A stretch of 64,000 nucleotides of DNA from Candidatus Latescibacterota bacterium. Lineage in GTDB: Bacteria; Latescibacterota; UBA2968. Location of the stretch: positions 3,008,001-3,072,000 of the forward strand of contig OZ240241.1 in NCBI GenBank assembly GCA_965198115.1, written 5' to 3'. The first letter of the stretch is position 1, and each line of letters opens with the position of its first letter. Below are positions 13,289-37,479 of this stretch, piece after piece. The position numbers were made by a program, and so were the translations under genes. The notes beneath the pieces were generated by a model. The model worked only from the letters and a program-made list of their open reading frames with translations. It was not told the DNA's origin and did not search any database.

Positions 13289-13716
13289 TCCTGGGATCCG
13301 GAATCGGTGTCTTCAATTTTCGCCGCAACCGCTTCCGGGATTCCCACAGCCTTCATCTTGCCGCCTGGCTCGACTACGCAACAGGCCGTCGTGATTTGCC
13401 CTTCGGCGATGAGTATGCCTTCGCGTGTGAAGGTGTAGCCGAACGTCATCGAGCGCTCGCCTTTCCGAGTCACTTCCAGGCGAATGTCCAACTCGTCCTC
13501 GAAGAAAGCGGGCGCCCGAAAATCGCACGAAGCCGAAACTCGAGGCCATCCGATCTTCTGGCCGTCGTGTTCGGCCATGACGGAGGTGTCCAGCGAGCGA
13601 AGGAACTCGTGCTCTGCCGACTCCATATACCCGAAGAAGCGGGAGAAGTGGACAATGCCGGCCAGGTCCGTATCGGAGAACTCGACCCGTCGCGTCGTCG
13701 TGAAGGCCGTGGGCAT
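13285..13716 (-). CDS. Acyl-CoA thioesterase (4HBT/YbgC hot-dog family)
   Basis: RRVEFSDTDLAGIVHFSRFFGYMESAE motif. Confidence 0.9.
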   Translation of the reverse strand: MPTAFTTTRRVEFSDTDLAGIVHFSRFFGYMESAEHEFLRSLDTSVMAEHDGQKIGWPRVSASCDFRAPAFFEDELDIRLEVTRKGERSMTFGYTFTREGILIAEGQITTACCVVEPGGKMKAVGIPEAVAAKIEDTDSGSQE

Positions 13717-14264
13717 CAGTCCAGACCTACCACGTCGGCCAGCCCGGCATAGCCGTTCGCCGATAAACGCTCCCCGCTCAGGGCGAAGTAACCGGGGCCT
13801 GCGGTCAGCCCGAGACCTTCGACGAACCGATTCATCATGTTGAACAGCGCGCAGACGGCGACGGCGTCGTGCAGCGCCTGCTCATCCCATCCGGCATCCA
13901 GGACTTCATCGGCATCATCGGACGTCACGCGCGACGGGGTTCGGGTCAGCTTTCCGACGTAGCGCAGAATCGGTTTGAGTTTCTCATCCACTTCCGAGCT
14001 GTCGAGATCTTCCATAGCGCTCTGCAGGACGTCGGATGCAACTCCGAACTGTTGTGCGACGGCCGTGTGCACGCCTTGACAATAGTGGCAGGCGTTCACG
14101 CCAGACACATAGGCAGCGATCAGCTCCCGCTCCGCCGCCGAGAGCGGCGACACTTTTCGCATCACGGCCTCGTGATAATCGAGCAGGGGACGCACCGTAT
14201 CGGGGAAACGCTTGAAGACGTCGACCAGGACGGCATCTTCGGGAACCGATCGCAGGAAGGGCAT
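13716..14264 (-). CDS. AhpD-like/carboxymuconolactone decarboxylase family (peroxidase-related) protein
   Basis: ERELIAAYVSGVNACHYCQGVH (CxxC plus H) and FNMMNR. Start reassigned to the ATG at 14264, 2 nt after the upstream stop. Confidence 0.85.
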   Translation of the reverse strand: MPFLRSVPEDAVLVDVFKRFPDTVRPLLDYHEAVMRKVSPLSAAERELIAAYVSGVNACHYCQGVHTAVAQQFGVASDVLQSAMEDLDSSEVDEKLKPILRYVGKLTRTPSRVTSDDADEVLDAGWDEQALHDAVAVCALFNMMNRFVEGLGLTAGPGYFALSGERLSANGYAGLADVVGLD

Positions 14265-14266: not shown

Positions 14267-14767
14267 TCAGGTTCCCGGCCGGTATAGCGTGACGAGTGCA
14301 CCCCCCGCGGCCGCACAGACGATACCTAGAAGGAACTCCCAGTTCAGCGCACCGAATCCACCCTTGGGAGGGTGCACAGCCATGGCCACACACGCGTTCA
14401 CGATCGGAGCACCCGCGAACACGATCGACATCACGACCGGTGGTGTTCCCTTTGCGCCGAACGCCAGCAGAATCCCGAAGGCACCCAATGCCCCGGCGAT
14501 ACCGGCCACGGTCGACCAGACCATCCCCTTCATCGGGAAACCGAAGTCTGAGCCATTCAGCTTCAGCACGATCAACGACCCGATCACCGCCGTCAGCACG
14601 TAGGCGACGCCGACGAACAGGTAGGCTTTGTAACGACCGTTCACAGGGTCCGCCATCGACAGCTGACCCGTGTGCAGCAGGACGCCGTAACACCCCCACG
14701 AGGCAACCGAAATCATCGCAAAAGCCAACCACATGAATCCCGATCCCGCAACCTGTTCACCAGCCAT
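14267..14767 (-). CDS. Small multi-TM membrane protein (DMT/EamA-like half)
   Basis: About 5 hydrophobic helices, WGCYG motif, RBS GGAGG upstream. Confidence 0.7.
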   Translation of the reverse strand: MAGEQVAGSGFMWLAFAMISVASWGCYGVLLHTGQLSMADPVNGRYKAYLFVGVAYVLTAVIGSLIVLKLNGSDFGFPMKGMVWSTVAGIAGALGAFGILLAFGAKGTPPVVMSIVFAGAPIVNACVAMAVHPPKGGFGALNWEFLLGIVCAAAGGALVTLYRPGT

Positions 14768-14800: not shown

Positions 14801-16081
14801 TCATCCGGCCAGCCGCCTGTAGATTGCCATCGTATTCTCCGCCATCGTTTCGACCGTATATCGATCGAAAACGGCTTCCCGTCCGCGTCGGCCCAAATCG
14901 GCTCTCAGCGGTTCATCGTTCATCAGACGTTCGATCGCATCCGCAACGTCCGAGGGTGCATCCGAAGCCGACAGGATCCCGCCCCCCGTGCCTTCGATCA
15001 GCTCGGGGAACGCCCCGTGATCGGGTTGGACGACGGGGATGCCACACGCCATCGCCTCCAGCGCGAACAGACCCTTCGGATCGTGGTAGGGTGTGGGCAC
15101 GCTCAACACGTCGAGGTCTTGGAGGAAGGCGATCTTTTCCTCCCGGTCGATGTCGAACGCGAACGAAACATTCCCGTCCAGACCGCCCGTCTCAACCTGA
15201 CCCCTGACCGTCTCGAAGTAGGCTTCGTCCCGCTTACCCAACCAACCGGCGACCCGCAGAGACGGTGCACGCTCCGCGCGTGTGTGCAGGAGACGGACGG
15301 CCTCGATCAGATTGTGCAATCCCTTCTCAGGACAGATGCGTGCGAGGTAGCCGATCCTGAACGGTTCATCCTCTGCTCTGTCCCCCGTCGAGAAGCCCTC
15401 CACGCGAATGCCCAGAGGAACGACATCGACCTGTTCGGGGCCCAACCCGAGCCTTTGTGCCATGTGTCGTGCATAATAATGACACGGTGCAATGTGCGCA
15501 TCCGCCTCGCCCGCCCGTTCGCGCAGGAGACGATACGCTTCGGCCTTGTAAGGTTCGACCAACCCATCCAGAAAAATGTCTTCGCCCGCGAATGCCACGA
15601 CAACGGGCGCGCCCACGGCTTCTCTGAGACCGGCCGCAAACCCGCCGAACATCGAGTTCGTCAGCTGAATCACATCCGGCTCGAAGTCCCGAAGGAATTC
15701 GATCAGTTTCTGCATCTCCTTGACGTGGGGGCCGCGGTCGCCCTGCAGCATCGAAACCGTCAGCCCACACAGGTCCTCCGCTTTTGTCGACCCCGACAGA
15801 CGTCCGAGGGAATCGAGAAGGGCCGGATGGTCCAGCAACCGGTCGACGAACCCGGGTGTGTACCGAAACATCGACCACTTCTGCTGAAGGTAGACGTTCA
15901 CGCCACCGAAGAACACACGGTCCAAACTGACGTCCTCGTCGTCCGTTCGGAGCGGCGTGTAGGTCGGAATCAGCACGACCTCGTGCCCCTGGTCGATCAA
16001 GGCTGAGGCGAGTGCGTTGTCCCGGATGCAGGTGCCGCAGTACATGCCGGCTGCACCCGCTGCAACGTAGGCGATTCGCAT
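14801..16081 (-). CDS. Glycosyltransferase family 4 with N-terminal CxxC
   Basis: MRIAYVAAGAAGMYCGTC start (TGATG overlap), GYLARICPEKG, PKGLFALEAMACGIPVV GT-B motif. Confidence 0.88.
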   Translation of the reverse strand: MRIAYVAAGAAGMYCGTCIRDNALASALIDQGHEVVLIPTYTPLRTDDEDVSLDRVFFGGVNVYLQQKWSMFRYTPGFVDRLLDHPALLDSLGRLSGSTKAEDLCGLTVSMLQGDRGPHVKEMQKLIEFLRDFEPDVIQLTNSMFGGFAAGLREAVGAPVVVAFAGEDIFLDGLVEPYKAEAYRLLRERAGEADAHIAPCHYYARHMAQRLGLGPEQVDVVPLGIRVEGFSTGDRAEDEPFRIGYLARICPEKGLHNLIEAVRLLHTRAERAPSLRVAGWLGKRDEAYFETVRGQVETGGLDGNVSFAFDIDREEKIAFLQDLDVLSVPTPYHDPKGLFALEAMACGIPVVQPDHGAFPELIEGTGGGILSASDAPSDVADAIERLMNDEPLRADLGRRGREAVFDRYTVETMAENTMAIYRRLAG

Positions 16082-17556
16082 CAGCCGGATTTCCCGAATG
16101 GGTCGAAGAATCGGTGCAGTCGCTCTTCGGACGGCGCCCTCGTCGCAATCGAGACGACAAACAGAACGGCGACACTGGCCGCCGTCATCCCAACGACCGG
16201 CATGAGCCCCGTTCCTCCGATCGTATAGCCGGAGTCGTTCCAAGCCCGGCTGACGAAGTAGACCCACGACAGCGCGACGGTTCCGAAAGCGGCAAGAACG
16301 GCCGCACGCGTCGTCCGACGCCAGAAGACCGAAGCGACGACCACGGGAAACAGCGCTGCGAACCCGGAGAACGACCAGATGCCCAGACGAAAGATGCTTC
16401 GGTCGACGACCAGGGATAGCGCGAAAACCAGAGCCAGGACAATCGCCACGAAGAGACGGGCGCAGAGCACTTGTTGTCGCTCCGACATCTGATCGTCGAA
16501 CCCGTAGTGGCGCACGATATCCTGCGTGAACATCGTACCGACGGCCAGAACCTGCGAGTCGAGCGACGACATGACCGCGGCGAAAACGCCGGCACCCAGG
16601 AGCCCGGCCAGGATTCCGGGCGCGTGGGTGTCGATGACCCTCACCAGCACGGCGTTGGCGGCCGGCCCCTGCAGATCGGGAAAATCGATCCGTCCCATCA
16701 CACCCAGAAGCACGCTCGGGACCCAGACGATCGCGATGCAAAGGGGATAAAGAGCCACCGGCCACCGAAAGGAGGACTCATCCCGTGCCGTCAACCAGTG
16801 CATGAAGAGATGGGGAAACATACCGGCCGACAAGGGGATCATCGTGTAGGAGGCGAACTGGGCCGGGGAGATCATACCCTCTCGCTGCAGGAGACCCGGA
16901 TGAATCGAATCGACGGCATCAAGAGCCGCAGCGAGACCGCCGTGCCGGCTGACGATCAAACCGACCGTCGCTGCTCCGAGCGTCATGAAAACGAGCGTCT
17001 GAAAGGCGTTCGCCCACGCCGTCCCCCTCAATCCACCGTAGCAGACGTAAGCCAGAACGACCGCGCAGACCACGAACGAGCCTACCCAGTGGGGAACCGA
17101 CCCGTCGGTGATCTGATGGAAGGTGATCCCGCCACCCATCACGCCGATCAACAGATACGGAACGACCAGCGCAACGTTCAGCACGAACAGGGCCAGACCG
17201 ACTCCGTCCGATCCGAAGCGGTCCCGAAAATACTGGGCCTGGGTCACGTAGCCGTATCGCTTTCCCAGCCGCCACAACCGAGTACCCACGAACAGGAAGA
17301 TGACCGGAATCACGATGGCCGAGGATGAACCCATCAACCCGAACACGCCGATCCCGTGGTGGTAGGCTTCACCCGACGCGCCCAGGATCGAGAACGCCGT
17401 CATGTTCGTGCCGAACAGGGACATCAGGAGAAAAAACGGGCCGATCGTCCGGCTCGCGACGAAATAGTCCTCGCCGGTGCCTCTGAACAACCTGTGGCTG
17501 AGCGCACCGACCACCAGAACGATCGCCAGGTAGCCAACGATCACCCCCAGAACCAT
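16081..17556 (-). CDS. Sodium:solute symporter (SSS) family protein
   Basis: EDYFVASR, YGGLRGTAW, FAAVMSSLDSQ motifs; about 13 TM segments. Confidence 0.9.
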   Translation of the reverse strand: MVLGVIVGYLAIVLVVGALSHRLFRGTGEDYFVASRTIGPFFLLMSLFGTNMTAFSILGASGEAYHHGIGVFGLMGSSSAIVIPVIFLFVGTRLWRLGKRYGYVTQAQYFRDRFGSDGVGLALFVLNVALVVPYLLIGVMGGGITFHQITDGSVPHWVGSFVVCAVVLAYVCYGGLRGTAWANAFQTLVFMTLGAATVGLIVSRHGGLAAALDAVDSIHPGLLQREGMISPAQFASYTMIPLSAGMFPHLFMHWLTARDESSFRWPVALYPLCIAIVWVPSVLLGVMGRIDFPDLQGPAANAVLVRVIDTHAPGILAGLLGAGVFAAVMSSLDSQVLAVGTMFTQDIVRHYGFDDQMSERQQVLCARLFVAIVLALVFALSLVVDRSIFRLGIWSFSGFAALFPVVVASVFWRRTTRAAVLAAFGTVALSWVYFVSRAWNDSGYTIGGTGLMPVVGMTAASVAVLFVVSIATRAPSEERLHRFFDPFGKSG

Positions 17557-17747
17557 CACGCTTCCTCGTTCCGGTCGACCAGGGACTTCCCCAGACCATA
17601 GAGCATCGCGGAAACAGCGATGCACAGCGCAACGTGATATGAGAGACCCACGGGCAAACCCAGAACCCGCGTGTCCACCGACCAGAACCACACGTCCTGA
17701 TGCAGAAAGACGAGTGCAACCAGGCCGAAACCACAAAGACGTCTCAA
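17556..17747 (-). CDS. Small SSS-associated 2-TM protein (DUF3311/DUF997-like)
   Basis: LHQDVWFW...VLGLPVGLSYH. RBS GGGAGG; stop overlaps the SSS start. Confidence 0.75.
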   Translation of the reverse strand: MRRLCGFGLVALVFLHQDVWFWSVDTRVLGLPVGLSYHVALCIAVSAMLYGLGKSLVDRNEEA

Positions 17748-17788
17748 GCGACCTCCCCTTCAATCCATGCCTGAATCAGGTCCACAGC

Positions 17789-17992: not shown

Positions 17993-19228
17993 CTACACCC
18001 AAGACGCTCCGGGCAACGCACAACTCTTCGACATCGACTCGAACAGGGGTGTCACGTCGACCCGGTAGACCTTCCCGCTCAGGATATCGACGATGTGCTG
18101 CTGGCACTCCGGATTCGCTTTCAAAAATTCACCGAAGCTGAAATCCTCGGAGTAGAACGCGTAGACCAGTTTCCGAATCGATTCCATGCCTTGAAGATAC
18201 TCGGTCAGGAATCGGCCGAGACGCTCGCCCGAAAGGTCCCCCTCCCGAAGACCATCGACGATCGCATCGGCCGCCATTTCGCCCGATTTGAGCGCCAGAA
18301 AGATGCCGGATGAATAAACGGGATCGAGGAATCCGAACGCGTCGCCCACGAGCACCCAGCCCTCTCCCGCAATACGGTCGGCTCGATACGAGAAGTCGCG
18401 CGTCGTTTTCATCGGAAAGACCTGCGTCGCGCACGACAGTCGGTCGACCATCGGCGCGCACAACGCCAACTCCCGCTCAAAAATGCCCTGGGCGTCGAGC
18501 GACCGGTCGTTGAACAGGTAATCGATGTCCCCCACGATTCCCACACTCACCCGATTCTCCAGCAACGGGATATACCAGAACCAGCTGTCCCTGTTGGCCG
18601 TCGTCAGAATGAGCGTTGCCCCCTCGTCGATGCCTTCGTCGCGGATGCCGTTTTCGTAGTGCGTGAAAACGGAAGCCTTCCGCAAGGAGGGCTCCGCTCG
18701 GATGATCTTCAGCTTGCGCGAAAGCAGCGCGCTCTGACCGCTTGCGTCTACGACGACGCTACACCCGTGTTCTTCGCTCTCGCCACTCGCCATCTTCACA
18801 CGAACGCCCGTCGCCCGACCGTCGTCGAACAGCACCTCGAGCACTGATGCACGCAGAACGACGTCCACGCCCTTCTCCGACGCGTGGTCCTGCATCATCC
18901 GATCGAAATCGCTGCGCAGTACCTGCCACGTCACCGAACTCTCGTGCGGGTCGTTCTCGTTGAAATAGAAGGGCGCCGATGCCCGCCCGGACGCACCGTA
19001 AAATTGAACGCTGTATTTACGTGGATAAGCTGTCTTCGCCAGCTTTTCGAGCAGCCCCAGACGCTCGAACGTCCAATACGTACCGGGCATCAGGGACTCG
19101 CCGATTTTGAACGTCGGTTCGGCGTTCCGTTCGAACAACCGAACATCAAAGCCGGCGTCGGCCACGAGTGCGGCCGTCGTCGTACCCGCTGGGCCCCCTC
19201 CGACCACGATCACGTCCGGATCTGCCAT
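17993..19228 (-). CDS. Flavin-dependent halogenase-like FAD oxidoreductase
   Basis: GGGPAG FAD motif, KIGESL, conserved Lys in YPRKY, WFWYIP (WxWxIP) motif, GDAFGFLDPVYSSG. Confidence 0.85.
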   Translation of the reverse strand: MADPDVIVVGGGPAGTTTAALVADAGFDVRLFERNAEPTFKIGESLMPGTYWTFERLGLLEKLAKTAYPRKYSVQFYGASGRASAPFYFNENDPHESSVTWQVLRSDFDRMMQDHASEKGVDVVLRASVLEVLFDDGRATGVRVKMASGESEEHGCSVVVDASGQSALLSRKLKIIRAEPSLRKASVFTHYENGIRDEGIDEGATLILTTANRDSWFWYIPLLENRVSVGIVGDIDYLFNDRSLDAQGIFERELALCAPMVDRLSCATQVFPMKTTRDFSYRADRIAGEGWVLVGDAFGFLDPVYSSGIFLALKSGEMAADAIVDGLREGDLSGERLGRFLTEYLQGMESIRKLVYAFYSEDFSFGEFLKANPECQQHIVDILSGKVYRVDVTPLFESMSKSCALPGASWV

Positions 19229-19231: not shown

Positions 19232-20539
19232 CTAATCCGCTCCATCGTCCCGATGATCGTTCACCCGTTGCGCCTTCAGTTCGAACCGGGGCAGACTCCC
19301 TGGCAACGCCGCCTGCACCGAGGTCCGGAGCGCGAGTGCATCTCGAAGCGTGCGGCCTATGCGTTCACACACAGCGTCGGCCAGCGACGGCTGCGCCTCG
19401 ACACGCACCTCGATATCATCCATCGTGCCCCTTCGAAACACGTCGACCGCGAACTCACCCGCCCCCTCGCAAGCCCGAATCACATTCTCGATCGCACTCG
19501 GGTAAACATTCACACCTCTAACGATCAGCGCATCGTCCATCCGTCCGATCACACCCCCCTCGAGTCGTCGATACGTTCGGCCGCACGAACACATCTCCGG
19601 GTGAAGCCGCACGCGGTCCCCCGTCCGGTAACGTAGAACCGGCGACCCGACCCGACCCAGGTTCGTGATAACGAGCTCTCCCTCGTCCGTCGACGCTCCG
19701 GTCTCCGGATCGATGACCTCAAAGATGAACTCACCCTCATTCAGATGGAGCCCGGCCTGTTGCGAACACTCGTAACTCCACGGTCCCACTTCGGTCGCGC
19801 CCGCGTGATCGTAGCAGCGTGCCCCCCACGCCGCTTCGATCCTGGCACGTGTCGACGCCAGTCCCGCGCCCGGCTCTCCACCGTGAATCGTGACCTGTAT
19901 ATCCGATCCCGCCAGGTCGATGCCTTCTGCCTCGGCCACTTCCGCCAGACGGAGTGCGTAGGTCGGTGTGGAGCAAAGGACCGTCGCGCCGTTATCCAAA
20001 ATCGCCTGCAGACGCTGCACGGAATCCATCGTCCCCCCGGGAATGGCCATGGCACCGATTCGTTGACAGCCCTCGAAGGCGCTCCAAAACCCGATGAAGG
20101 GGCCGAATCCGAACGCGAAGAAAACACGGTCCCGGGAAGTCAGTCCAGCCGCGCGAAAAACCGATACCCAGCCCTTCGTGAACCACGACCATCCCGGTTC
20201 GTCGTCCATCCAACGAAGGGGTGTCCCTGTCGTCCCCGACGTCTGATGGACACGCACGTATCGATCGATCGGATGAGTCAGATTCGTGCCGAAGGGAGGA
20301 TGGTCTGCCTGGTCGTCCGACAGCTCTTCCTTCGTCGTAAACGGCACATCGACAAGAGAGTCGGGCGTCACGTCGCGCGAACGTTCGATCCCCGAGCCGA
20401 TCAATTTTTGCCTGTAGAAGGGGTTGGACACAAGAAGCGTGTCGATCATGTTGCCGAGCCGATCGAACTGGGACTCGACAAGGGCTACGCGATCGGCACG
20501 TTCGGTGTGGGTGACCGTCTCATCCGCTGACGTGTTCAT
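19232..20539 (-). CDS. Phenylacetate-CoA ligase (PaaK)-like aryl/acyl-CoA ligase
   Basis: TSGTTG P-loop, GGEPG, YDHAGATE, RYRTGD, GRMDDALIVRGVNVYPSAIE. Confidence 0.88.
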   Translation of the reverse strand: MNTSADETVTHTERADRVALVESQFDRLGNMIDTLLVSNPFYRQKLIGSGIERSRDVTPDSLVDVPFTTKEELSDDQADHPPFGTNLTHPIDRYVRVHQTSGTTGTPLRWMDDEPGWSWFTKGWVSVFRAAGLTSRDRVFFAFGFGPFIGFWSAFEGCQRIGAMAIPGGTMDSVQRLQAILDNGATVLCSTPTYALRLAEVAEAEGIDLAGSDIQVTIHGGEPGAGLASTRARIEAAWGARCYDHAGATEVGPWSYECSQQAGLHLNEGEFIFEVIDPETGASTDEGELVITNLGRVGSPVLRYRTGDRVRLHPEMCSCGRTYRRLEGGVIGRMDDALIVRGVNVYPSAIENVIRACEGAGEFAVDVFRRGTMDDIEVRVEAQPSLADAVCERIGRTLRDALALRTSVQAALPGSLPRFELKAQRVNDHRDDGAD

Positions 20540-20552: not shown

Positions 20553-21905
20553 TCAGGTATAGCGTGCGTTGCGGTAGGCGGCGTCGTAGAACCGGGGCAA
20601 CAGCTGATCGACCCGCAGCAGGCCGCGGCGGCTCAGCTGGACCCGGTCGGCTGAGACCGAAAGCATGCCATCGTCCTCCAGCCCGGAATAGACCGTCCCG
20701 AACTTGCTCAGAATATCCTCTCCGAACTTGCCGCTGAAGTAGGAGGGCTCGATCGTGCCCAGCTTGAGCTGAAGGATCATCTCACGAGTCAGAAGTTCCT
20801 CGGCGGAAGGAATGAACCCACGTCCGACTGGAAGCCGGCCCTCGGCCAGATCGTTCAGATAGGGGTCCCACCCCGTCTTGTTCTGGTAATGAACCCCACC
20901 GACGTGGGAAAAGGAGGCGACACCCGTTCCGATCATATCCGAGCTGCGCCATAGGGCGTCGCGATAGACGAACCCGCCGGGCCGTCCGTTCTTCGACAGG
21001 GTATACGCGCTCGTCGCCCGATAGCCTGCAAGCTCGAACCGCTCGATGGCGTAGTCGTGCCAGGCTCGCTTCGTCTCCCAGTCCGCGACGTTGGGAGCCC
21101 CTGCCGCGTCGTCCCTCAACGCCTTCGAATAGGTCGTGTTGAACGGCAATTCCATCTGGTAAATCGTCACCGTGTCCGCGTCGATGTCGATCGCTCGAGA
21201 TACGGTCTCGCACCAGGTCTCCCACGTCTCCCCGACCATGCCCGAGATCAGATCGATGTTGACCCACGGGAAATCCAGCGCCTCGATCCAGGGAAGGACT
21301 TCTTCGATCTCCTGCCGGAGATGGGCCCGTCCGTTTTCCCTGAGGATGTCGTCGTTCATGTTCTCCACACCCAGACTCAGACGCGTCACGCCGATCTTGC
21401 GAATCGCCTCGAGCTTCGGCTGACTCAAAGTGCCCGGTTCGCACTCGAACGCGACCTCTCGGGTGCGCCTCCACGGAAACACGGCTTTGACCCGTTCGAC
21501 GAGCGTCTCCAGATGCTTGACGCTGATGTAGGACGGCGTGCCACCCCCGAAATACACGAAGTCCAGGTGCCGTCCTTCGAACCGTGCTTTTGTGCCGTTC
21601 ATCTCCACTTCAGCGGCTAGGGCTTCCAGATAGGTGTCGATGTCACGCGCGTTCTTGTCGGTGTAGACGCGAAAGTAGCAGAACTTGCAACGCTTCCTGC
21701 AAAAGGGAATGTGAAGATACAGCCCCACCGGTGTGTCGGGATCCCCCTTCGCGTCGAGCGACGACAGGGCTCGTTCCACAACATCCTCTTCCCAGAACGA
21801 ATAGGGTGGGTAGTTCGACACGAACACACTGCCCACGTCTGTCTTCTTCCAGTCTCGGGCGGTCGTTGCGGGCTCCGCGAGGATGACGTCTGCGACTTCA
21901 GCCAT
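20553..21905 (-). CDS. HemN-like (class C-type) radical SAM enzyme
   Basis: LYLHIPFCRKRCKFC, YFGGGTPS, RLSLGV, NIDLISG, HemN-type C-terminal domain. Confidence 0.88.
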   Translation of the reverse strand: MAEVADVILAEPATTARDWKKTDVGSVFVSNYPPYSFWEEDVVERALSSLDAKGDPDTPVGLYLHIPFCRKRCKFCYFRVYTDKNARDIDTYLEALAAEVEMNGTKARFEGRHLDFVYFGGGTPSYISVKHLETLVERVKAVFPWRRTREVAFECEPGTLSQPKLEAIRKIGVTRLSLGVENMNDDILRENGRAHLRQEIEEVLPWIEALDFPWVNIDLISGMVGETWETWCETVSRAIDIDADTVTIYQMELPFNTTYSKALRDDAAGAPNVADWETKRAWHDYAIERFELAGYRATSAYTLSKNGRPGGFVYRDALWRSSDMIGTGVASFSHVGGVHYQNKTGWDPYLNDLAEGRLPVGRGFIPSAEELLTREMILQLKLGTIEPSYFSGKFGEDILSKFGTVYSGLEDDGMLSVSADRVQLSRRGLLRVDQLLPRFYDAAYRNARYT

Positions 21906-23010
21906 CGTTACGATCCAGATCAGGTTTTCCGAAACAGTAGAACACGCCGTCATCGCTCCCGATGTAGAGTCGATTCAGATCCACGGCCGGCGACGCGGTG
22001 AAGGATCCGCCTCCCGTGAATCGCCATCGAAGTTCGCCCGAAAACCGGTCCAAAAATACGATTTCCCCGTGCTGTGTCGCGACCACCAGCCGATCCCCCA
22101 CCACAACCGGTGAAGCGTCCACTCGGGCACCGGCGTTGTAGATCCACAGCGCTTCTCCCGTTCTGGGGTCGAGCGCGTGCACCATGCGATCCCGTCCGCC
22201 GATGTAGAGCAGCTCCGCGGTGATGGCGGGCGAAGAGTAGAAAGGGAAATGACGTTCGAGGTGCTCGTAGTGCCACAAAACGTCGCCCTGTGCCAGGTCG
22301 ACCGCCATCACCTGGTTTCCGAACGTCCCGAAATAGGCCACTTCGCCAAGCAGGGCGGGGCTCGACCCGACATAGTCCCCGACATCGATCGTCCGGTCCG
22401 CCTCGCCGGTTCCCACTCGGACCCCTCGCATGAATCCGTCGCATCCGGCGACATAGCACCGCCCGGCGTGCAGGACGGGCGTCGCGTGAACGTAGCCATC
22501 CGTCTCGACTTTCCACGCCACACTACCCGTGGTCCGGTCGAGCCCGTAGAGGAAATTGTCATACGAACCGAACACCACGCGGTCGTCCACCACACGTGCG
22601 GACGAGGTAACCCCACCCTCCAACCGCGTGATCCAGACGCCCTCCCCCGTCTTTGCGTCGACCGCGTGAAACGCGCCCGATTCGTCACCCGCGTAGACGA
22701 CGCCCTCGACCACGGTCGGTGACGACTTCACTTCTCCGGCGGCTACGTAAGACCAGATCGCTTCACCCGTCAAGGCATCGAGCCCGTAGAGCTTTCCGTC
22801 CAGGCCGCCAAAGTAGACCCGACCGGCGACGACCGCAGCAGTGGATTCGATCGGCTCCTCGACCTCGAACGTCCACAACACGACCACGGAATCCGGCAAT
22901 GACGATGTGGCGACCCCGGTACTCCTCGGGTTGCCCCTAAAACTGGGCCACTCCGCGTCCACCGTCTGCCAGGCGGCAAGGGCAATCAGGAAACTACAGA
23001 GCAGCCGCAT
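21898..23010 (-). CDS. PQQ-binding-like (BamB-like) beta-propeller protein
   Basis: Signal peptide, WPSFRGN, eight regular SSP...DG.LYALD..TG...W blades. Confidence 0.87.
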   Translation of the reverse strand: MRLLCSFLIALAAWQTVDAEWPSFRGNPRSTGVATSSLPDSVVVLWTFEVEEPIESTAAVVAGRVYFGGLDGKLYGLDALTGEAIWSYVAAGEVKSSPTVVEGVVYAGDESGAFHAVDAKTGEGVWITRLEGGVTSSARVVDDRVVFGSYDNFLYGLDRTTGSVAWKVETDGYVHATPVLHAGRCYVAGCDGFMRGVRVGTGEADRTIDVGDYVGSSPALLGEVAYFGTFGNQVMAVDLAQGDVLWHYEHLERHFPFYSSPAITAELLYIGGRDRMVHALDPRTGEALWIYNAGARVDASPVVVGDRLVVATQHGEIVFLDRFSGELRWRFTGGGSFTASPAVDLNRLYIGSDDGVFYCFGKPDLDRNDG

Positions 23011-24106
23011 ACAGGGCCTCGAACGCGCGGGCGTTGACAGGTCGAGGGTTGTGGGTGCCCGTCCACTGTTCAACGGCGTCCGCCGCCAGCGAGGGAAGTG
23101 CATTCTGTTCGACGCCGCACGAACCCAGCCGTTCGGGCAACTCACCGAGGGCTCTGAGGGTCGTGACGCGATCGATCAACCGGTCGACCCCTACCCCCAA
23201 ACCATCGTAGAGCGATGAGTCACCGGCGGCGTTGTAGGCGATCACGTGCGGCAACATCACCGCGACAGCGGCCCCGTGGGCAAGTCCATAACGTGCCGTC
23301 AAGGGATTGGCGCACGCGTGGGCCGCCCCCAGCATCGAAGCCTCGATCGCTGCACCTGCAAAATGGGCGCCCACGAGCACGTCCCCAGCTGTGTCGACAT
23401 CGTCCGGTTTTCCGTAATGTCGCTCGAACGACCCATCGAGCAGACGCCAGGCCTCCCGTGCGAACAGACGCGAGACGGGATTGCGGGTCCGCGTTACGTA
23501 GCTCTCCAAGGAGTGGGCCACGGCATCCAGACCCGTCGCTGCCCGCACCGCCAGGGGCGTCGAAGCGATCAGGGTTGGATCCAGCAGGACCGCTCCGAAA
23601 CGCATCTTGCGATCGCCGCACGCCATCTTCTCGTGCGTGTCGGGCCGCGTAATCAGCGCGTAGGACTGTGCTTCGCTCCCCGTTCCAGCCGTCGTGGGAA
23701 TACCGATCGACGGCAGCAACGCAACTCGTGCCTTGCCAAACCCCTCGTAGTCCTCGACGCGTCCCCCGTTGGTTAGCACCAGGTTGATCGCTTTGGCGCT
23801 GTCCATGGCACTCCCGCCGCCGAGCCCCACGATGGCGTCCGGTGAAAAGGCACGGGCAGCACGCACACCCTCATCGACGACCTCGGAAGTCGGGTTGGGA
23901 TGCACGTCGCCAAAGACGTGGACGGACCGACTTCCTTCTTTCAGCACGCTTGCGAGTTCATCGACCAGACCGGCGCAGACAACACCCGGGTCGGTGACGA
24001 CCAAAACCCGGCGACACGCCATTTCATCGACGACGCGACTAGCGTCGCTCGCAACACCTGGGCCGAATCGGACGTGGATCGATGGATCGTAGGCGAAAGG
24101 GAGCAA
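22994..24106 (-). CDS. Iron-containing alcohol dehydrogenase
   Basis: GGGSAMDSAK, PTTAGTGSE, DAVAH, AHAC and AHG metal-ligand motifs. Confidence 0.92.
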   Translation of the reverse strand: MLPFAYDPSIHVRFGPGVASDASRVVDEMACRRVLVVTDPGVVCAGLVDELASVLKEGSRSVHVFGDVHPNPTSEVVDEGVRAARAFSPDAIVGLGGGSAMDSAKAINLVLTNGGRVEDYEGFGKARVALLPSIGIPTTAGTGSEAQSYALITRPDTHEKMACGDRKMRFGAVLLDPTLIASTPLAVRAATGLDAVAHSLESYVTRTRNPVSRLFAREAWRLLDGSFERHYGKPDDVDTAGDVLVGAHFAGAAIEASMLGAAHACANPLTARYGLAHGAAVAVMLPHVIAYNAAGDSSLYDGLGVGVDRLIDRVTTLRALGELPERLGSCGVEQNALPSLAADAVEQWTGTHNPRPVNARAFEALYAAAL

Positions 24107-24129
24107 GGGGACGTCCGCGGCGTAGCCGA

Positions 24130-25554
24130 TCAGGACGCACGCTGCAGAGCGCGCTGAACGTAGAGGTGCTCGAAAAGGTTACCTTCGTGGGGCTGATCCC
24201 ACGATACCACGTGTGTTCCAAGGGGCCCGATGTTCAGTCGTTCGATCTTCGGGCTTCCGAGCAGATCTTCGGTGAACGTGTCGTCTTCCGTGATCGCCGA
24301 CACCGCCAGCGACGGACCGATGGCATCGAGCAGGTCGGATTGCGGCACTTCCACGACGCTCGCGAACGGGAACAAAAACTCCGTATCGGCCAGCGGGTGC
24401 CCCGGCTCCGCGCGCACGATCGTCGGCACGAGAAAGGTCAATCCGTCCAGGACCTGCAAGCGGTCGTTCCGAAAGTTCGCGGAGACCTCCGTTGCCCCGT
24501 CGTGGCGAAGATAGGTGTCGATCGTGTTCGAAATCGCTTCCGCGAAAGACGGGTTGCCGAAGGCCGCAAGGCCGGCCTCCGGATCGTCGAGTCTTCGCGG
24601 GACCAGGTCGGCCAGCCGCTCGGCAAGCGCCGCAGCCACCTCATCGCCACGCGAAGGAACCCATACGCTCGACGCGTTGATGCACGACCGCCCTCCGTTG
24701 ATCGCGATCGAATCCGCGACCACGTCGATGTGATCCTCCCACCGATCGATCGTGTCTGCCCCGATCAGGACTTTGCTCTGTCCTGGGCCGTGAATCTGCA
24801 CACGCGGATCGTCTAGCCAGGGAGCGACGGTCGCACCGCCCCCGAAGAGCATCGATCGATCGCAGCGAAGAAGAATCTCCGTCACACCACCGTGATCCGT
24901 CGGATAGAAGCTGAAAGCCTCCTTCGGGCACCCTGCCTTGAAGAACGCCTGCGCGATGCGGTAGGGCGTCCACGGTTCCTCCCGCCCGGGCTTGAGCACC
25001 AGCGGCACCTTGAGCGCGATCGACGGGACCCAGAGCGAATGAACCCCCGGTGAGTTGCTAGGAAGGATCTCCCCAAGCGCGCTGGATTGACAGATGTAGC
25101 TCAGAGGGCGTCCACCCTGGACCGTCCACCCCTCGTCGAGCACGGTCAGGTCCAGACCGCGAGTCAGCCCATCGAGAATCTGATCCACGTCCGACAACGC
25201 CTTGTAGATCTTGTCGACGTTCCGACGTACGAGCGCTTCGGGCATGCCCGTCGTGCCCGACAGCGACCGAACGTAGTCGTCGAGCGTCTGTTCGCCCTCG
25301 CCGACCGGGAGCGTATCGTGCACGAACGACTCGGCCGCCATCTTCGAAACTTCGATCAGTTCGGCGACCGGTACCTCGGCCAACCGCGCACGGTGTTCGG
25401 CCATCCGGTTGAGGTCCCGCGCGACGAGACCGCGGTTGGCCTGGCTCACCTCCACCAACGGCTCCTGCGTCTGGATGTGGGCAACGGTCGTCTTGTTCAG
25501 ACTCTCGTAGACCGATCCAGCGCGCAAGATCGGGAGATGAATCGGCGCCGACAT
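24130..25554 (-). CDS. Aldehyde dehydrogenase-fold acyl reductase (GriD/EhpG/LuxC-like)
   Basis: LPSNSPG, VLKPG, catalytic Cys in NGGRSCINAS, EFLFP. HGPGQSK replaces the canonical ELGGK. Confidence 0.78.
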   Translation of the reverse strand: MSAPIHLPILRAGSVYESLNKTTVAHIQTQEPLVEVSQANRGLVARDLNRMAEHRARLAEVPVAELIEVSKMAAESFVHDTLPVGEGEQTLDDYVRSLSGTTGMPEALVRRNVDKIYKALSDVDQILDGLTRGLDLTVLDEGWTVQGGRPLSYICQSSALGEILPSNSPGVHSLWVPSIALKVPLVLKPGREEPWTPYRIAQAFFKAGCPKEAFSFYPTDHGGVTEILLRCDRSMLFGGGATVAPWLDDPRVQIHGPGQSKVLIGADTIDRWEDHIDVVADSIAINGGRSCINASSVWVPSRGDEVAAALAERLADLVPRRLDDPEAGLAAFGNPSFAEAISNTIDTYLRHDGATEVSANFRNDRLQVLDGLTFLVPTIVRAEPGHPLADTEFLFPFASVVEVPQSDLLDAIGPSLAVSAITEDDTFTEDLLGSPKIERLNIGPLGTHVVSWDQPHEGNLFEHLYVQRALQRAS

Positions 25555-25591
25555 CAATAAACCCCGTTCCAGAAGAACTTCGCAAAAATCA

Positions 25592-26671
25592 TCAATAAAC
25601 CCCGACTACGACGGACTCCTGCAACGCGCTGAAAAGACGGAGGTTTTCGACGCCGTCCCACGGGTAGGCGTCGATCGGCCGTGCTCGCTCGGCTTCATCT
25701 CGCTCGAGGAATCGGGGAATGAAAAATTCCTTCGTCAGCGTGGTCAGCGCGACACGCCCTGTCTGGTCGTAATCTACAAGACGTGATGGATCATCCGGAT
25801 CGACCAGCTCGATCACGGCGCGTGGGTTCGGTGGATAGTAAGTGATCGCGTAGTTATCCGCCGGGTCGAACGGCTTGGAATGAGCCAGACCCATCAACGT
25901 ATTCCCGTAGGTCGGCACGAACGCGATTCCCGGAATCAGTTCTTCTCGTGCGAACCGGTTGAACTGGGCGTCCATCTCCGTTCCACCGCAGAAGATCCCT
26001 CTGATTCCCATCTTCTCGAGGGAGATTTTCTCACAGAGCGCATCGAGCAGCTTGGGCGTCGTGAAGATGCACTGGACGTTGTCGTTCGCCCGCAGAATCG
26101 TCAATGCTTGATCGATCGCGTGGTTCTTGTAGGCCTCCAGCTCCTGCATCTTACCGGCCTTGATCAATTTGTTGACCCAACGTGGGTCCAGATCGACCAG
26201 GAAACAGATACCCCCACGAACCTGCGCGAGGTACTCCACGGCCAACCTCAGCCGACGCGGCCCCGTGGGTCCGAGCATGAGCCAGTCGGCCCCCTTCGGG
26301 AATCCGTCGTCCGGAAGGTGGTCGCTGAACATCCGGTAATCGATCTTGTAATCTTCGATGTTGATTCGGTACTTCGGCACACCCGTCGATCCACCCGTCT
26401 CGAAAACCGAGACGGGTCTGTCTGCCATGCCCTTCGGCACCCACCGCCGCACGGGCCCACCCCTCAACCACTCATCCTCGAAATGCCCCAACGACTGGAG
26501 GTCCTCGAATTTTTCGATCCTGTCACGCGGGTCGAAATCCAACCGATCGGCGTAGTCCAACCAGAAAGGACAGCCGGTATCCGGATTGAAGTGCCAAGCC
26601 ACCATCTCGCGAACGTGGGCGTCGAGCGTCTCCTTCGCATCCCGAACTCTGGATTCCAAAGAGTCCGTCAT
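25592..26671 (-). CDS. Atypical adenylating enzyme (GriC/EhpF/LuxE-like)
   Basis: WHFNPDTGCPFW, P-loop FETGGSTGVPK, YGNTLMG, ERD. Short (359 aa) and lacks the usual ANL C-terminal domain. Confidence 0.7.
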   Translation of the reverse strand: MTDSLESRVRDAKETLDAHVREMVAWHFNPDTGCPFWLDYADRLDFDPRDRIEKFEDLQSLGHFEDEWLRGGPVRRWVPKGMADRPVSVFETGGSTGVPKYRINIEDYKIDYRMFSDHLPDDGFPKGADWLMLGPTGPRRLRLAVEYLAQVRGGICFLVDLDPRWVNKLIKAGKMQELEAYKNHAIDQALTILRANDNVQCIFTTPKLLDALCEKISLEKMGIRGIFCGGTEMDAQFNRFAREELIPGIAFVPTYGNTLMGLAHSKPFDPADNYAITYYPPNPRAVIELVDPDDPSRLVDYDQTGRVALTTLTKEFFIPRFLERDEAERARPIDAYPWDGVENLRLFSALQESVVVGVY

Positions 26672-28104
26672 TTCCCCGCCTGGATCGCGAACAATCGGTT
26701 TCGAGTCGCAAGGTAGAGCACGCCATTGGCGAACACGGGCGTCGTGTAGACCGCGCTCCCCATGTTCGTCTCGAACAGCAACTCCAATTCCCTTCCCGCC
26801 TTGAGCACGGCGACATCACCGTCCTCATCGCCGATCAGCACTTTTCCATCCCCCGAAAAAGGCGATCCCCAGATAGCCGCGAACGTATCGTAGCGCCAGA
26901 GCGGCTTTCCCGTTTTGAGATCGATCCCGTAAACGAACCCGCTCAGATCCGCGGCGTAGAGGAGACCGTCCCGGATCGACACCGTCGATATCGTGCGGTT
27001 GTAGTGCTCGTCACCCACGTGCCACACGGCGTGGGTCTCAGTCACGTCCCCTTTTCCGGTCGCGTCGATCGCCCACAAGTGGCCGATGCCCTCTCCGTGT
27101 TCGGGGTCCTGACCGACGCCGATGAACACCTTGTCGTCATAGAAGACCGGGGTCCCGATCAGGGCGTTGCGTGTGCCACGCCCCCCGAGCTCCCAGACCG
27201 AATCCTTCGGATTACAGTCGAACTTCCAAACCAATTTTCCCGTCTCTGCTTCGAGCGCATACAACCATCCGTCCCCACCGGGCATGAACACCTGCCCCTC
27301 ACCATTCACGACCCCGTATGCGGGGCTCGCCCACTGGCCGTGGAGAATGTTCTCGCCGGGCAAACCGTTCTCCCAGACCAGCTTACCGGTCTTTTTGTCG
27401 AGGGCGATGAAACTTGGGGCAAAAGGGGCCGGGATGGCCACGTGACCCTCGTCGACACCGTTACTCGTAACCAGGAAAAGCAGGTCACCCGCACCCACGG
27501 GGGAGCTCGTCGCCAGGTTGTGCGGGAACACGGTTAGCTCTTCGATCATATCGTAGGCCCAGATCACGTCACCGTCGATTGCTGTCGTGTCTGATTCGTC
27601 CGTAAAAGGACCGTCGTTCACACCGTCCCTGAACCCTTCCGTGTCGATACAGACGACCTGGCACTGGTTGGACACATAATAAAGACGGTCGTCCTCGATG
27701 TAGGGCGTCGAGCAGATCCCCTGCTGGGGCCAGTCGTTGACGCGACCGGCCGACAACTTCGTGTGGGTCATCTGCCATAGGAAGGCGCCGGTCGATTCAT
27801 CGAAGGCCATGATGACCCCGCGATCTCCCGCCAGCTTGGGATTCTTCCTCGACTGGTTGTTCGTGCCCACGAACACCTTGCCTTTGTGGACGACCGGCCC
27901 CGCATACGTCTGTGCACCGAGCTCCGCCACCCACTTCGGCGTTTCGGGGTCCCATTCCGAAGGAATACCCGTCGCATCGGTCGCCAGGTTCCGAGCCGGG
28001 GTGAACCCCCACATGGATTCTTCCGCCAGCGCCGCAGATCCGATCGCCAGAGAAACCCCCCATCCGACCAACACACACACACGCCTCACACTATTGATCA
28101 CCAT
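26668..28104 (-). CDS. PQQ-binding-like beta-propeller protein
   Basis: Signal peptide, RBS GGAGG, repeated D..TG...W blades, acidic loops. Confidence 0.85.
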   Translation of the reverse strand: MVINSVRRVCVLVGWGVSLAIGSAALAEESMWGFTPARNLATDATGIPSEWDPETPKWVAELGAQTYAGPVVHKGKVFVGTNNQSRKNPKLAGDRGVIMAFDESTGAFLWQMTHTKLSAGRVNDWPQQGICSTPYIEDDRLYYVSNQCQVVCIDTEGFRDGVNDGPFTDESDTTAIDGDVIWAYDMIEELTVFPHNLATSSPVGAGDLLFLVTSNGVDEGHVAIPAPFAPSFIALDKKTGKLVWENGLPGENILHGQWASPAYGVVNGEGQVFMPGGDGWLYALEAETGKLVWKFDCNPKDSVWELGGRGTRNALIGTPVFYDDKVFIGVGQDPEHGEGIGHLWAIDATGKGDVTETHAVWHVGDEHYNRTISTVSIRDGLLYAADLSGFVYGIDLKTGKPLWRYDTFAAIWGSPFSGDGKVLIGDEDGDVAVLKAGRELELLFETNMGSAVYTTPVFANGVLYLATRNRLFAIQAGK

Positions 28105-28110: not shown

Positions 28111-30297
28111 CTACCAGACCTTCAGATTGTCATAATAGACGTTCGTCGGCGAGTAACCGTAGAGCCCTGGGCTGCCCTCCTCAAGTGGCAGCGGATCCTC
28201 AGCTTCGATCGTCCACGTTGCGGGCTCTTCGAAACCCGTCCGCCAGACCTTGGCACGGACGATCGCCCGGTCGACCTCCTGGTCGACTCTCACCTTCATT
28301 GTATACCAGGTGTCCTCGTCCCAGGCGAAGTCGACCGTCTTGGCCATGCGCAGGTCAGAAAGCCACGATACGATCTGGAGTCGCTGGTGGTTCCCGAGCA
28401 AGTGTACGATGTAGCGATGGCTTATCAGGCCGACATCCGACCGCACGCGCCGATCACGAGTGCCCTTCACATCTGCCTGAATGGTGTAGCCCGACATCGA
28501 CGGGGCCCCGAAAAACACACTCGATCGGTGCAGCTTGATCGGAGACGGGGGCTTCATCAGGACCCGTCCCTCTCCGGTGTCGATCGCCCTGAATTTTCGG
28601 AATCCCCCGACTAGAAACGACGGCTGGGTCCCCAGCTCGAGCGCCTCGAAGTCTTCGTAGTAAGGCAGCCACGGACTGACGCGGACCCGCGCCGTGGCTT
28701 CGAAGTCGCCGGTGCTGAACGTGACCCGGCCCGTCTGGCCGTTCACATCGGGCGAAACGGTAAAGACACCGTCCCCTTCGACCGTCCCCTTCAATCCCTC
28801 GACCCCCCACTTCCCGGACGCCCCCCACATGTCCTGTCCTCTTTCGTTCACGTAGCGAGCCGCGAACTGAATCCGGTCGCCCGGCAAGGCGTGGATCTCC
28901 GCCGGCCGGATCTGAACGTGCGCAGGGGGAAGCGAACCATCGTAGCTCGACACGCCGGGTCGTCCCGCGTGTCGCTGTATCGATGACGGCGCGGACCCTC
29001 CCAGACAGTAGAGGCCCTCCTCGGTCGTGAAGTAGATGCGTCCGTTCGCGATCGCCGGAGACCCGTAAATCTCGGCGTGTTGACCGGGCGCACGCTCGAT
29101 CCGCTTTCGATCCAACGTGATCGGTTTTTCACCACTCACGTCGACGATCGTAAATCCACCGTTGACCTCGGGCACATAGAGCTTGCCATCGCCGTAGGCG
29201 GCGGACCCTTTTCCCACCGTTCCGACATTGTGCTCCCACAGATGCGAGCCCGTCCGCGTATCTAGGCAATGGACGTTCGCGGAGTTGTCGATCACGTAAA
29301 GCTTGCCATCGTGCAGCACGGGGGATGTATATCCGACCATGTGGTTGTCGAAACGCCAGACCTCGTTCGATCCGGTAATATCCCCCACACCGGCAAGATC
29401 GATCGCAACGACTCGACCGAGGGACGTGTTGTCGATGTTCTCTTCGCTGTGCGATGCGTAGACATACCGGCCGTCAGTCACGGGCGAAGAGTTGATACCT
29501 CGCTGGCTCAGTTTGAAACCCCAGATCTTCCGACCCGTGGCGGCATTGAGTGCGTAGATGGACCCATCGGCATCTCCGACGAGCAGGGCTCGCTGACCGC
29601 CGACCTGGGCGATGACCGGCACCGCATAGGTCGTATCCTTTGGGGGCCCACCCGGTGTCGAAATCCAGACCAGATCTCCTGTCCGCTTGTCGAACGCGAA
29701 GTAGCGATGCCGGGGAATGCCCTGCTTGCCCCAACCGGTGCTGAGGTAACTGATCAGCACGAGATCGCCCTCCACGAACGGCGTGTGTGTGCGCCCACCG
29801 TAGCCCGAAATCCGACCGTATTCCTCCGTGAGGGACTTCGACCAGACGATACGTCCATCGCGGTCGAAGCAGAAAAACAGACCGCCAACCCCGTGGGCAT
29901 AGACGTAGCCAGTCTCTGGATCCGCGGCGGGGCTCGCCCATCCGACCCTGTTGAACGGGATCGTCGTGTGAAAGACGTTGAACGAATGGTCCCAGATCAA
30001 GGCGCCGGTTTCGGCGTCGAAACAGGCCACACGCTCCTGTTCGGTCACGTCCTTCCCTGTCCGGCCGACCACGTAAACGCGCCCATCAAACACCACGGGC
30101 GTCGAACGACCCGTGAAATCCGCTCTCCAGAGAAGACTCTGGCCCTCCGTCGACCAATGGGCCGGGAGCCCCTCTTCGAGCGAGACCCCCGTCAGCAACG
30201 GGCCCCGCCAGCCGGGCCAATCGTCCGCCACCACGCCCCCCGACAGAGCTGAACAGACACCGAGCGCGGCGCACCACATCACGTATATCACCCTCAT
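28111..30297 (-). CDS. PQQ-binding-like beta-propeller with C-terminal Ig-like and beta-sandwich extension
   Basis: Signal peptide, WPGWRGP, W-blades, then ~290 aa of beta-rich sequence ending YYDNLKVW. Start could be up to 30378. Confidence 0.83.
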   Translation of the reverse strand: MRVIYVMWCAALGVCSALSGGVVADDWPGWRGPLLTGVSLEEGLPAHWSTEGQSLLWRADFTGRSTPVVFDGRVYVVGRTGKDVTEQERVACFDAETGALIWDHSFNVFHTTIPFNRVGWASPAADPETGYVYAHGVGGLFFCFDRDGRIVWSKSLTEEYGRISGYGGRTHTPFVEGDLVLISYLSTGWGKQGIPRHRYFAFDKRTGDLVWISTPGGPPKDTTYAVPVIAQVGGQRALLVGDADGSIYALNAATGRKIWGFKLSQRGINSSPVTDGRYVYASHSEENIDNTSLGRVVAIDLAGVGDITGSNEVWRFDNHMVGYTSPVLHDGKLYVIDNSANVHCLDTRTGSHLWEHNVGTVGKGSAAYGDGKLYVPEVNGGFTIVDVSGEKPITLDRKRIERAPGQHAEIYGSPAIANGRIYFTTEEGLYCLGGSAPSSIQRHAGRPGVSSYDGSLPPAHVQIRPAEIHALPGDRIQFAARYVNERGQDMWGASGKWGVEGLKGTVEGDGVFTVSPDVNGQTGRVTFSTGDFEATARVRVSPWLPYYEDFEALELGTQPSFLVGGFRKFRAIDTGEGRVLMKPPSPIKLHRSSVFFGAPSMSGYTIQADVKGTRDRRVRSDVGLISHRYIVHLLGNHQRLQIVSWLSDLRMAKTVDFAWDEDTWYTMKVRVDQEVDRAIVRAKVWRTGFEEPATWTIEAEDPLPLEEGSPGLYGYSPTNVYYDNLKVW

Positions 30298-30638
30298 TTC
30301 GAATCCTTTAAACGGATGGACAACGACCCGGAAAACCTTCAGATAACCTCGAAATCGCATAAATGAATTTGAATGCAATGATATCCAGCAACGAACCCGA
30401 GATCAAGCGAAACCTCGGGCCGAAAGGTCGGACCGCAATCAAACTAATATATTGTTTTTAAATGTCTTATTCGATCGAATTCCGATACCGTAACGCCCCG
30501 ATGGGCCGACTCCCGCCTTTTCTCTTGACACTCACGGGGAGCCACGCGATACTTGAAATCTGTCTGAGAGGGGTCGAGGCCCCCTGTCCGATGACCTGTC
30601 TACATCCGACAACACCGGGCCGACGATCAGGAGGCCAG

Positions 30639-36040: not shown

Positions 36041-36054
36041 GGAGGCAAAGAAAA

Positions 36055-37474: not shown

Positions 37475-37479
37475 AAAGA

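Follow-up and report, generated by a model that had tools for sequence, protein, structure and literature searches.

A predicted acid-to-alcohol enzyme triad in a conserved propeller operon of a Latescibacterota bacterium

Which acid is handled, and to what end, by enzymes of an antibiotic-cluster type that are encoded among exported beta-propellers? The question is raised by a stretch of 64,000 nucleotides from Candidatus Latescibacterota bacterium (GenBank assembly GCA_965198115.1, contig OZ240241.1, positions 3,008,001 to 3,072,000 of the forward strand), here called the window, whose own numbering is used throughout. Between 22994 and 26671 it carries on the minus strand a short adenylating enzyme, a protein with the aldehyde dehydrogenase (ALDH) fold and an iron-containing alcohol dehydrogenase (Fe-ADH), together the triad. 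A previous reading made from the sequence only had taken the first two for a GriC/GriD- or EhpF/EhpG-like carboxylate reductase that works in the reductive direction on a substrate other than a phenazine, and the resulting alcohol for the acceptor of a GT4-family glycosyltransferase. The present comparisons make it moderately probable that the triad converts an aromatic acid, predicted to be of the hydroxybenzoate type, to a benzyl alcohol by a GriC/GriD-type reductase followed by the alcohol dehydrogenase. In addition, a common core that consists of a GT4 with a CxxC motif, an FtsX-type ABC transporter and exported propellers carries either of two nearly exclusive modules, the triad being one of them.

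The reductase pair and its alcohol dehydrogenase

The adenylase gene (25592..26671, minus strand) is an intact open reading frame (ORF) of 359 residues without the C-terminal ANL domain. The two motifs that had led to its recognition were located at residues 90-100 (the P-loop FETGGSTGVPK, about 26372-26404) and 255-261 (YGNTLMG, about 25889-25909), and the P-loop pattern E-T/S-G-G-T/S-T-G-x-P-K, the YG(N/S)T motif and the ERD motif are all present. A structural comparison of this gene with EhpF had been set beforehand as the test of the assignment. Among solved structures, EhpF (3L2K) was matched at E=1.4e-44 over residues 18-359 and no other chain fell below E=0.5. In the same way, a fold search with an AlphaFold model built from a 44-row alignment (predicted local distance difference test 91.7) returned EhpF first, with a template modelling (TM) score of 0.80-0.82, and then PaaK-type ligases at 0.65. 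The length of about 360 residues, the missing C-terminal domain and the full-length match in sequence and fold put the adenylase in the EhpF/GriC type. A protein search retrieved at least 8000 clusters. The nearest named record is a Latescibacteria metagenome-assembled genome with 91% identity; adenylase and reductase are each single-copy in the 8.4-Mb host genome.

The reductase gene (24130..25557, minus strand) encodes 475 residues from a TTG codon, the probable start being an ATG at 25554. Its product is a remote ALDH (46.7 bits in Pfam; best PDB match at E=8.9e-11) that keeps the catalytic Cys292 within GRSCIN (residues 289-294) and lacks the general-base glutamate that hydrolytic ALDHs hold in ELGGK, as had been read from the sequence. 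The alignment with KauB places the substitute motif, HGPGQSK (residues 256-262, about 24772-24792), opposite LEAGGKS and thus Gly257 at the position of the glutamate. All 108 orthologs compared have both Cys292 and Gly257. ALDHs without this glutamate do not hydrolyse the thioester, and a non-acidic residue at the site that selects between NAD and NADP goes with a preference for NADP(H). This selector, residue 192, is acidic in none of the 108 orthologs (arginine in 70, serine in 20) and is Arg192 in the host, which by that rule favours NADPH and hence biosynthesis. The Fe-ADH (22994..24106, minus strand, 370 residues) is complete, with both Pfam domains, the GGGS motif and, by the family's ligand numbering, the Asp and His metal ligands.

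The likeness to EhpF/EhpG of the D-alanylgriseoluteic acid cluster of Pantoea agglomerans (PDB 3HGU, 3HGV, 3L2K) includes the short ANL fold (TM 0.82, 28-29% identity), the gene order and an ALDH-fold partner, 27% identical, with GPG-x-SK, the cysteine and PH(E/D)G. The plasmid gene after ehpF is presumably EhpG, judged by its place in the gene order. Plasmid searches with the adenylase yielded 29 records; the reductase drew 20, of which 19 were among the 29. The best plasmid matches to the reductase adjoin EhpF homologs, including those in phenazine clusters of Pantoea, E. coli and Burkholderia. Of the seven plasmid regions examined, three are phenazine clusters, two are Streptomyces clusters that contain chorismate-derived genes, one is a polyketide synthase region without reductase and one is haloarchaeal. 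Six reference reductases hold the cysteine and a G-P-G-x-S/A motif (one with R for the first G) and mostly a C-terminal PH(D/E); GPG-x-S/A-K, the cysteine and the C-terminal PH(E/D) are thus common to the host reductase and its plasmid references. Together with the fold match, these motifs bear out the EhpF/EhpG type.

Nevertheless, the two systems differ. EhpF/EhpG belong to an antibiotic cluster, whereas the triad lies in a conserved envelope operon and has the additional Fe-ADH. The triad adenylases share a clade-specific GPRRLR motif at which all other homologs seen differ, mostly with GPH-x-x-G (GPHIVG in EhpF), and in a 51-row tree, from a quick search in which long branches among the reference sequences were flagged, the 33 PRRLR rows formed one side of a branch with support 100 and the phenazine enzymes lay outside. 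The invariant arginines of the motif, presumably in the pocket as judged from the pocket positions of PaaK, might by analogy hold a second anion such as halophenolate. Searches of the whole genome with Pantoea queries (tblastn) gave no match for PhzA/B or PhzF and only 24-30% matches for PhzD/E/G, and no phz gene is among the Pfam matches of the window. The earlier claim that the substrate is not a phenazine agrees with this negative result and with the separate clade. Judged on these comparisons, the pair is predicted to work like EhpF/EhpG yet is no phenazine enzyme.

LuxE/LuxC, in which adenylation is followed by a cysteine thioester and NADPH reduction, resemble the pair in logic only; the pair has no Pfam match to LuxE or LuxC at E<=0.001, and the window holds no lux genes. 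GriC/GriD of grixazone synthesis in Streptomyces griseus reduce 3-amino-4-hydroxybenzoic acid (3,4-AHBA) to the aldehyde via acyl-AMP (PMC10179220). In the part of that description covered here, an AMP-binding and an ALDH-like protein reduce an aryl acid, as is proposed for the pair, while the route here likely continues to the alcohol.

EhpF-like genes were also observed in other settings. On a Streptomyces plasmid (L155, 7938-17005), one such gene, annotated 'arylcarboxylate reductase', directly precedes a type I polyketide synthase with no ALDH-fold partner in the region, which suggests a use as starter-unit activator. A separate EhpF-like clade (L131-L142, L144-L146, L148-L150; 30-35% identity, mostly with the GPH motif) also lacks the ALDH-fold partner and is accompanied by a thioester-reductase SDR, a class III aminotransferase, an MMPL transporter and multiheme cytochromes, which suggests an acid-to-amine route; its adenylase ORF spans 840-1040 residues in L139, L141 and L142 and is possibly fused. 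Finally, the enzyme pair may serve catabolism in the oxidative direction on a Halalkalicoccus jeotgali plasmid (L154, 6511-10569), where symporter, adenylase and reductase form a trio close to genes for an amine oxidase and an IclR regulator.

Spread of the triad and of an iron-sulfur counterpart

The triad sits on the minus strand in an operon of about 17 co-directional genes (30378 to 9297) that had been missed in the sequence-only reading. It encodes, in order, two propellers, the triad, a further propeller, a radical SAM enzyme, a ligase, a halogenase, a symporter, the GT4, a small membrane protein, a CMD-like protein, a thioesterase, an ABC ATPase and a permease. Eighty loci, fetched with 10-kb flanks and in some cases truncated, come from Latescibacterota, Poribacteria, Calditrichia, KSB1, Acidobacteriota and others. 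Of these, 75 hold the reductase as well as the adenylase, some loci reaching contig edges or carrying insertions; the Fe-ADH is present in 56 and the radical SAM gene in 47. A TonB receptor is added in 27 loci and was not found in the host genome. The adenylase occurs in 26 of 31 genomes of the host's order, the host included. Its identity of 53-79% across several abundant, mostly uncultured phyla, mostly as single copies, suggests a basic job for the triad.

Profiling was extended to 251 Planctomycetota and 251 Acidobacteriota genomes. At a cut-off of E<1e-100, the adenylase clade was present in 54 and 65 of them, respectively, genomes with weaker matches (25 Planctomycetota and 3 Acidobacteriota) being set aside as holding other clades or fragments. 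An Fe-ADH ortholog (E<=1e-75) accompanied the adenylase in 52 of the 54 positive Planctomycetota and was found in none of the remaining 197; the other two carry copies of 39-45% identity in their fetched loci. The alcohol dehydrogenase noticed behind the pair in the window is therefore a regular companion, although its ortholog is missing in two of five Acidobacteriota with compact loci. The triad genes are intact and jointly inherited.

The CxxC-GT4 was detected in 80 Planctomycetota and 69 Acidobacteriota genomes of the same sample, often far from the adenylase. All 119 adenylase-positive genomes have it, and it is functionally tied to the triad pair. Compact loci of adenylase, ALDH, GT4 and ABC genes also exist (L116, L118-L120, L147); in L147, from one Acidobacteriota genome, two adenylase copies flank the GT4. 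The CxxC lies in the first loop in 41 of 42 aligned rows and with both module types, the alignment of the remaining row beginning after it; it is unusual for a glycosyltransferase and is possibly a metal or redox site.

Thirty sampled genomes (26 Planctomycetota and 4 Acidobacteriota) have the GT4 without a full-length triad adenylase, and 28 of them carry an iron-sulfur module. Among the first 15 GT4-only loci examined, six (L158, L160-L162, L166, L167) have a NuoE-NuoF fusion and a NuoG-N/GltD protein in the slot that separates a propeller from the GT4 or from the next propeller, and NapG-like and NapH-like genes stand before these two. In 20 further NapH-like loci, NapG-like, NHL-type, NuoEF-like and propeller genes were present in all and the NuoG/GltD gene in 19. 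The NapH-like gene was found in 25 of 26 GT4-only, 5 of 54 triad and 5 of 171 GT4-negative Planctomycetota; it is also present in three of the four GT4-only Acidobacteriota, and in the remaining one the reductase was found together with an adenylase that is truncated at the edge of a contig. No NapH-like gene was found in the host genome. The module, an iron-sulfur/NAD(P)H chain, resembles the NapG/NapH and MauM/MauN ferredoxin pairs and NuoEF/NuoG-GltD flavoproteins through weak NapH matches, the NuoE-NuoF fusion and the NuoG-N/GltD domains, all of these matches being below curated cut-offs, and no catalytic molybdenum, tungsten or hydrogenase subunit was seen in the fetched iron-sulfur loci. 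In parallel, the heme-copper oxidase family (COX1) was found in 53 of 54 triad versus 6 of 26 GT4-only Planctomycetota. The near-exclusive occurrence of triad and NapH-like block, taken with the oxidase counts, characterizes the triad as an exchangeable, aerobe-linked module. On a GT4 tree of 42 rows the module type changes six times, with at least five changes forced by starred branches.

An SHC-like cyclase with prenyl genes is present in 60 of the 80 GT4-positive Planctomycetota and has no match in the host genome. It was ruled out as an alternative to the triad because it occurs with both module types. In a Planctomycetota block (L162, L192, L198-L216), an SHC-like cyclase with DxDD stands with a DUF116-polyprenyl synthase fusion, a prenyltransferase toroid, a GcvH-like protein, a CobW GTPase, a ferredoxin, a second radical SAM enzyme and a cysteine desulfurase.

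The predicted route, its substrate and rival readings

The best reading of the pair's direction is the predicted reductive one. The adenylase would make an acyl-AMP from the acid and ATP, the acyl group would pass to Cys292 of the ALDH-fold protein, where the thioester would escape hydrolysis because the general-base glutamate is missing, and NADPH would reduce it to the aldehyde, which the Fe-ADH would in turn reduce with NADH. The pair is very probably a carboxylic acid reductase, and it is likely, if somewhat less so, that the route proceeds to the alcohol. In Planctomycetota and some Acidobacteriota the acid is probably derived from chorismate; the host, in which no chorismate lyase was found, would import it through the symporter. 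Tailoring of the acid probably comes before its reduction: CoA ligase, halogenase and thioesterase form a plausible loop that would halogenate its CoA ester, and a carbon may be added by the radical SAM enzyme.

As to its nature, a hydroxybenzoate-type acid is rather favoured by a small chorismate-lyase-like gene. This gene adjoins the radical SAM gene in L099, L109 and L200 and lies near terpene genes in L213 and L215; its profile matches PDB 2NWI at E=9.4e-6, and its atlas neighbours (0.94-0.97) are Chor_lyase/Rv2949c-like on 11-19% of members. In Planctomycetota it was found in 41 of 54 triad genomes, none of 26 GT4-only genomes and none of the 80 GT4-negative genomes tested out of 171, and in 23 of the 41 no more than about 10 kb separates it from the Fe-ADH or GT4. 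Such a tie to triad genomes points to a hydroxybenzoate substrate. The baaA/baaB genes of planctomycete strain 10988, for 3,5-dibromo-p-anisic acid, show the same arrangement as L099 and L109, with a chorismate-lyase-like gene beside a flavin halogenase (bioRxiv 10.1101/723874). In the parts of that preprint covered, BaaB is described as 44% similar to Bmp5, whereas the halogenase here is of the PltA/CmlS type. The baaAB pair, probably another locus, was not adopted as the identity of the triad locus since the halogenase types differ.

Several points weigh against a reductive route from hydroxybenzoate. The lyase-like gene was found neither in the host genome nor in any of seven relatives of its order, so that the substrate is deduced from other phyla; it is present in only 22 of 69 GT4-positive Acidobacteriota, and the lyase-like proteins themselves have no Pfam match. 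GPRRLR stands where aryl-acid homologs have a histidine, which indicates that the pocket or the chemistry of the adenylase differs. The chemistry of acid, aldehyde and alcohol is near equilibrium and could run oxidatively, and the distant haloarchaeal pair has a symporter, an amine oxidase and an IclR regulator as neighbours. The module swap is open to objection too: PF00115, the oxidase family, also covers nitric oxide reductases, the GT4 tree comes from a quick search, and both modules occur together in five genomes. As related genomes are not independent, the exclusivity may partly follow lifestyle and not shared function.

What the product is for divides the readings further. One proposal, which stood in part in the earlier reading, makes the triad alcohol the acceptor of the GT4 and has the resulting glycoside exported by the ABC transporter, either as a specialised metabolite or as an aryl glycolipid. 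The co-occurrence of GT4 and adenylase in all 119 genomes, even where unlinked, the compact loci and the conserved GT-B fold and E/D-x7-E motif of the GT4 speak for it, and the covered parts of a preprint handle halogenase-plus-ligase clusters with propellers as natural-product clusters (bioRxiv 10.64898/2026.08.03.742642). However, the link of GT4 to triad stands while that of alcohol to GT4 does not hold as well: the GT4 persists in the 30 genomes without full-length adenylase, 28 of which have the iron-sulfur module, the five or more module switches on its tree imply that it has an acceptor without the triad, and two of the five compact-locus genomes have no Fe-ADH ortholog. The alcohol is thus less likely to be its obligate acceptor, and the identity of 53-79% across phyla in mostly single copies would be unusual for a specialised metabolite; the proposal is regarded as unlikely.

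The triad might instead form a redox cycle in which an aldehyde made at the expense of ATP delivers low-potential electrons to propellers in the periplasm and comes back as acid via the symporter, or which runs oxidatively, from alcohol by way of aldehyde to acid, and gains ATP. It occupies the same slot between propeller and GT4 as NuoEF and NuoG/GltD, and the symporter directly precedes the adenylase in six loci (L099, L101, L103, L106, L107, L109) and in Halalkalicoccus. Yet chorismate lyase, halogenase, CoA ligase, thioesterase and radical SAM enzyme point to one-way synthesis of a defined aromatic, and residue 192 speaks for NADPH and biosynthesis, which renders such a cycle improbable. 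Reduction of a fatty or other aliphatic acid in LuxE/LuxC fashion, supplying a lipid alcohol, is more improbable still. Thioesterase, FtsX-type ABC transporter and GT4 would suit a glycolipid, as would the frequent SHC-like cyclase of GT4-positive Planctomycetota; on the other hand the pair matches neither LuxE nor LuxC, its nearest references come from clusters for phenazines, aminobenzoate or isochorismate, the link to the lyase points to an aromatic compound and the cyclase has no match in the host. The reading of a hydroxybenzoate-type acid reduced to a benzyl alcohol is preferred. Its aromatic product would do for the propeller system, as a redox compound, what the iron-sulfur chain does in anaerobes; this redox role, suggested by analogy since the other module is an electron chain, is held only tentatively.

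The host operon and its meaning

Around the triad, the run begins with propeller 1 (28111..30378, on the minus strand like all genes listed from here to propeller 4), a PQQ-like beta-propeller whose N-terminus is hydrophobic and which has an additional domain at its C-terminus. Propeller 2 (26668..28104), also PQQ-like, overlaps the adenylase start by four bases, and propeller 3 (21898..23145, probable start near 23010) scores above the Pfam PF13570 cut-off. The HemN-like radical SAM enzyme (20553..21953) is below the cut-off of every NCBIfam model. A PaaK-like aryl-CoA ligase (19232..20539) is followed by the flavin-dependent halogenase of PltA/CmlS type (17993..19228), whose Lys67, WFWYIP and FLDPVYSSG correspond to the conserved lysine and the WxWxIP and F-x-D-P-x-x-S-x-G motifs characteristic of such enzymes and whose closest structures are halogenases. 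A 288-base copy of its 3' part (18090-18377), 97% identical, was observed among repeated elements elsewhere in the genome (G000:C1, 71094-71381). Next come a small membrane ORF with approximate limits (17556..17747), the L099 counterpart of which is a DUF3311 protein, the sodium:solute symporter (16081..17556 from its probable start, the ORF call being 16081-17763) and the GT4 of the GT-B type (14801..16081, true start 16081) with its invariant N-terminal CxxC.

Further on lie a small conserved membrane protein (14267..14767; 60% to its L101 ortholog, which has no Pfam match, and present in 11 fetched loci) and an AhpD/CMD-like protein (13716..14264), which is in no other locus and thus is not a conserved operon member. 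The run closes with a 4HBT-family thioesterase (13285..13716), a LolD-like ABC ATPase (12638..13288) and a large double-FtsX ABC permease of about 1110-1170 residues (9297..12803). Propeller 4 (4363..5607), at 47%, is the genome's best match to the propeller after the radical SAM gene in relatives and is displaced here. A promoter scan was at chance level (three found versus 2.8 expected), with one site just before the first gene. Elsewhere in the window, transposase genes (1363-3805, 36053-37475 and 53413-54840; DDE_Tnp_1_4 and two ISL3) have 99% identical copies in the genome, and at 41132-47691 a DUF6785/DUF6784 membrane protein precedes a very large ORF in which peptidase M28 and FtsX domains are combined.

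No description of this operon was found in the literature searched, most subscription journals being outside its coverage. 'Halo_AMP' clusters have been mined from sponge symbionts of the Acidobacteriota, Latescibacterota and Poribacteria (bioRxiv 10.64898/2026.08.03.742642). They resemble the operon in combining a halogenase with a PaaK-like ligase, frequently with PQQ-like domains, TonB receptors, a glycosyltransferase, a thioesterase and a radical SAM enzyme, and judged on the preprint's text they probably include the triad operon family. In the parts covered, the reductase pair goes unmentioned ('aldehyde dehydrogenase' has no match), and neither a function nor the iron-sulfur alternative is given.

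Two-protein carboxylate reductases were known from a few antibiotic clusters, whereas the triad clade occurs in about a fifth to a quarter of the sampled Planctomycetota and Acidobacteriota genomes. The pair may also serve as a compact acid reductase for biocatalysis. A wider proposal, put forward as speculation and thought unlikely as it stands, is that aerobic Planctomycetota, Acidobacteriota, Latescibacterota, Poribacteria and Calditrichota would make, for their exported PQQ-like propellers, a redox cofactor or mediator that is undescribed, hydroxybenzyl-derived and possibly halogenated; anaerobic relatives would swap this pathway for a transmembrane iron-sulfur wire, and both would keep the CxxC-GT4 and the ABC machine that matures or loads the propellers. 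The swap with the iron-sulfur module and the hydroxybenzoate lead make an anonymous operon testable in cultured planctomycetes, and they raise the questions of which aromatic compound is made and what role the many PQQ-like propellers play in these phyla.

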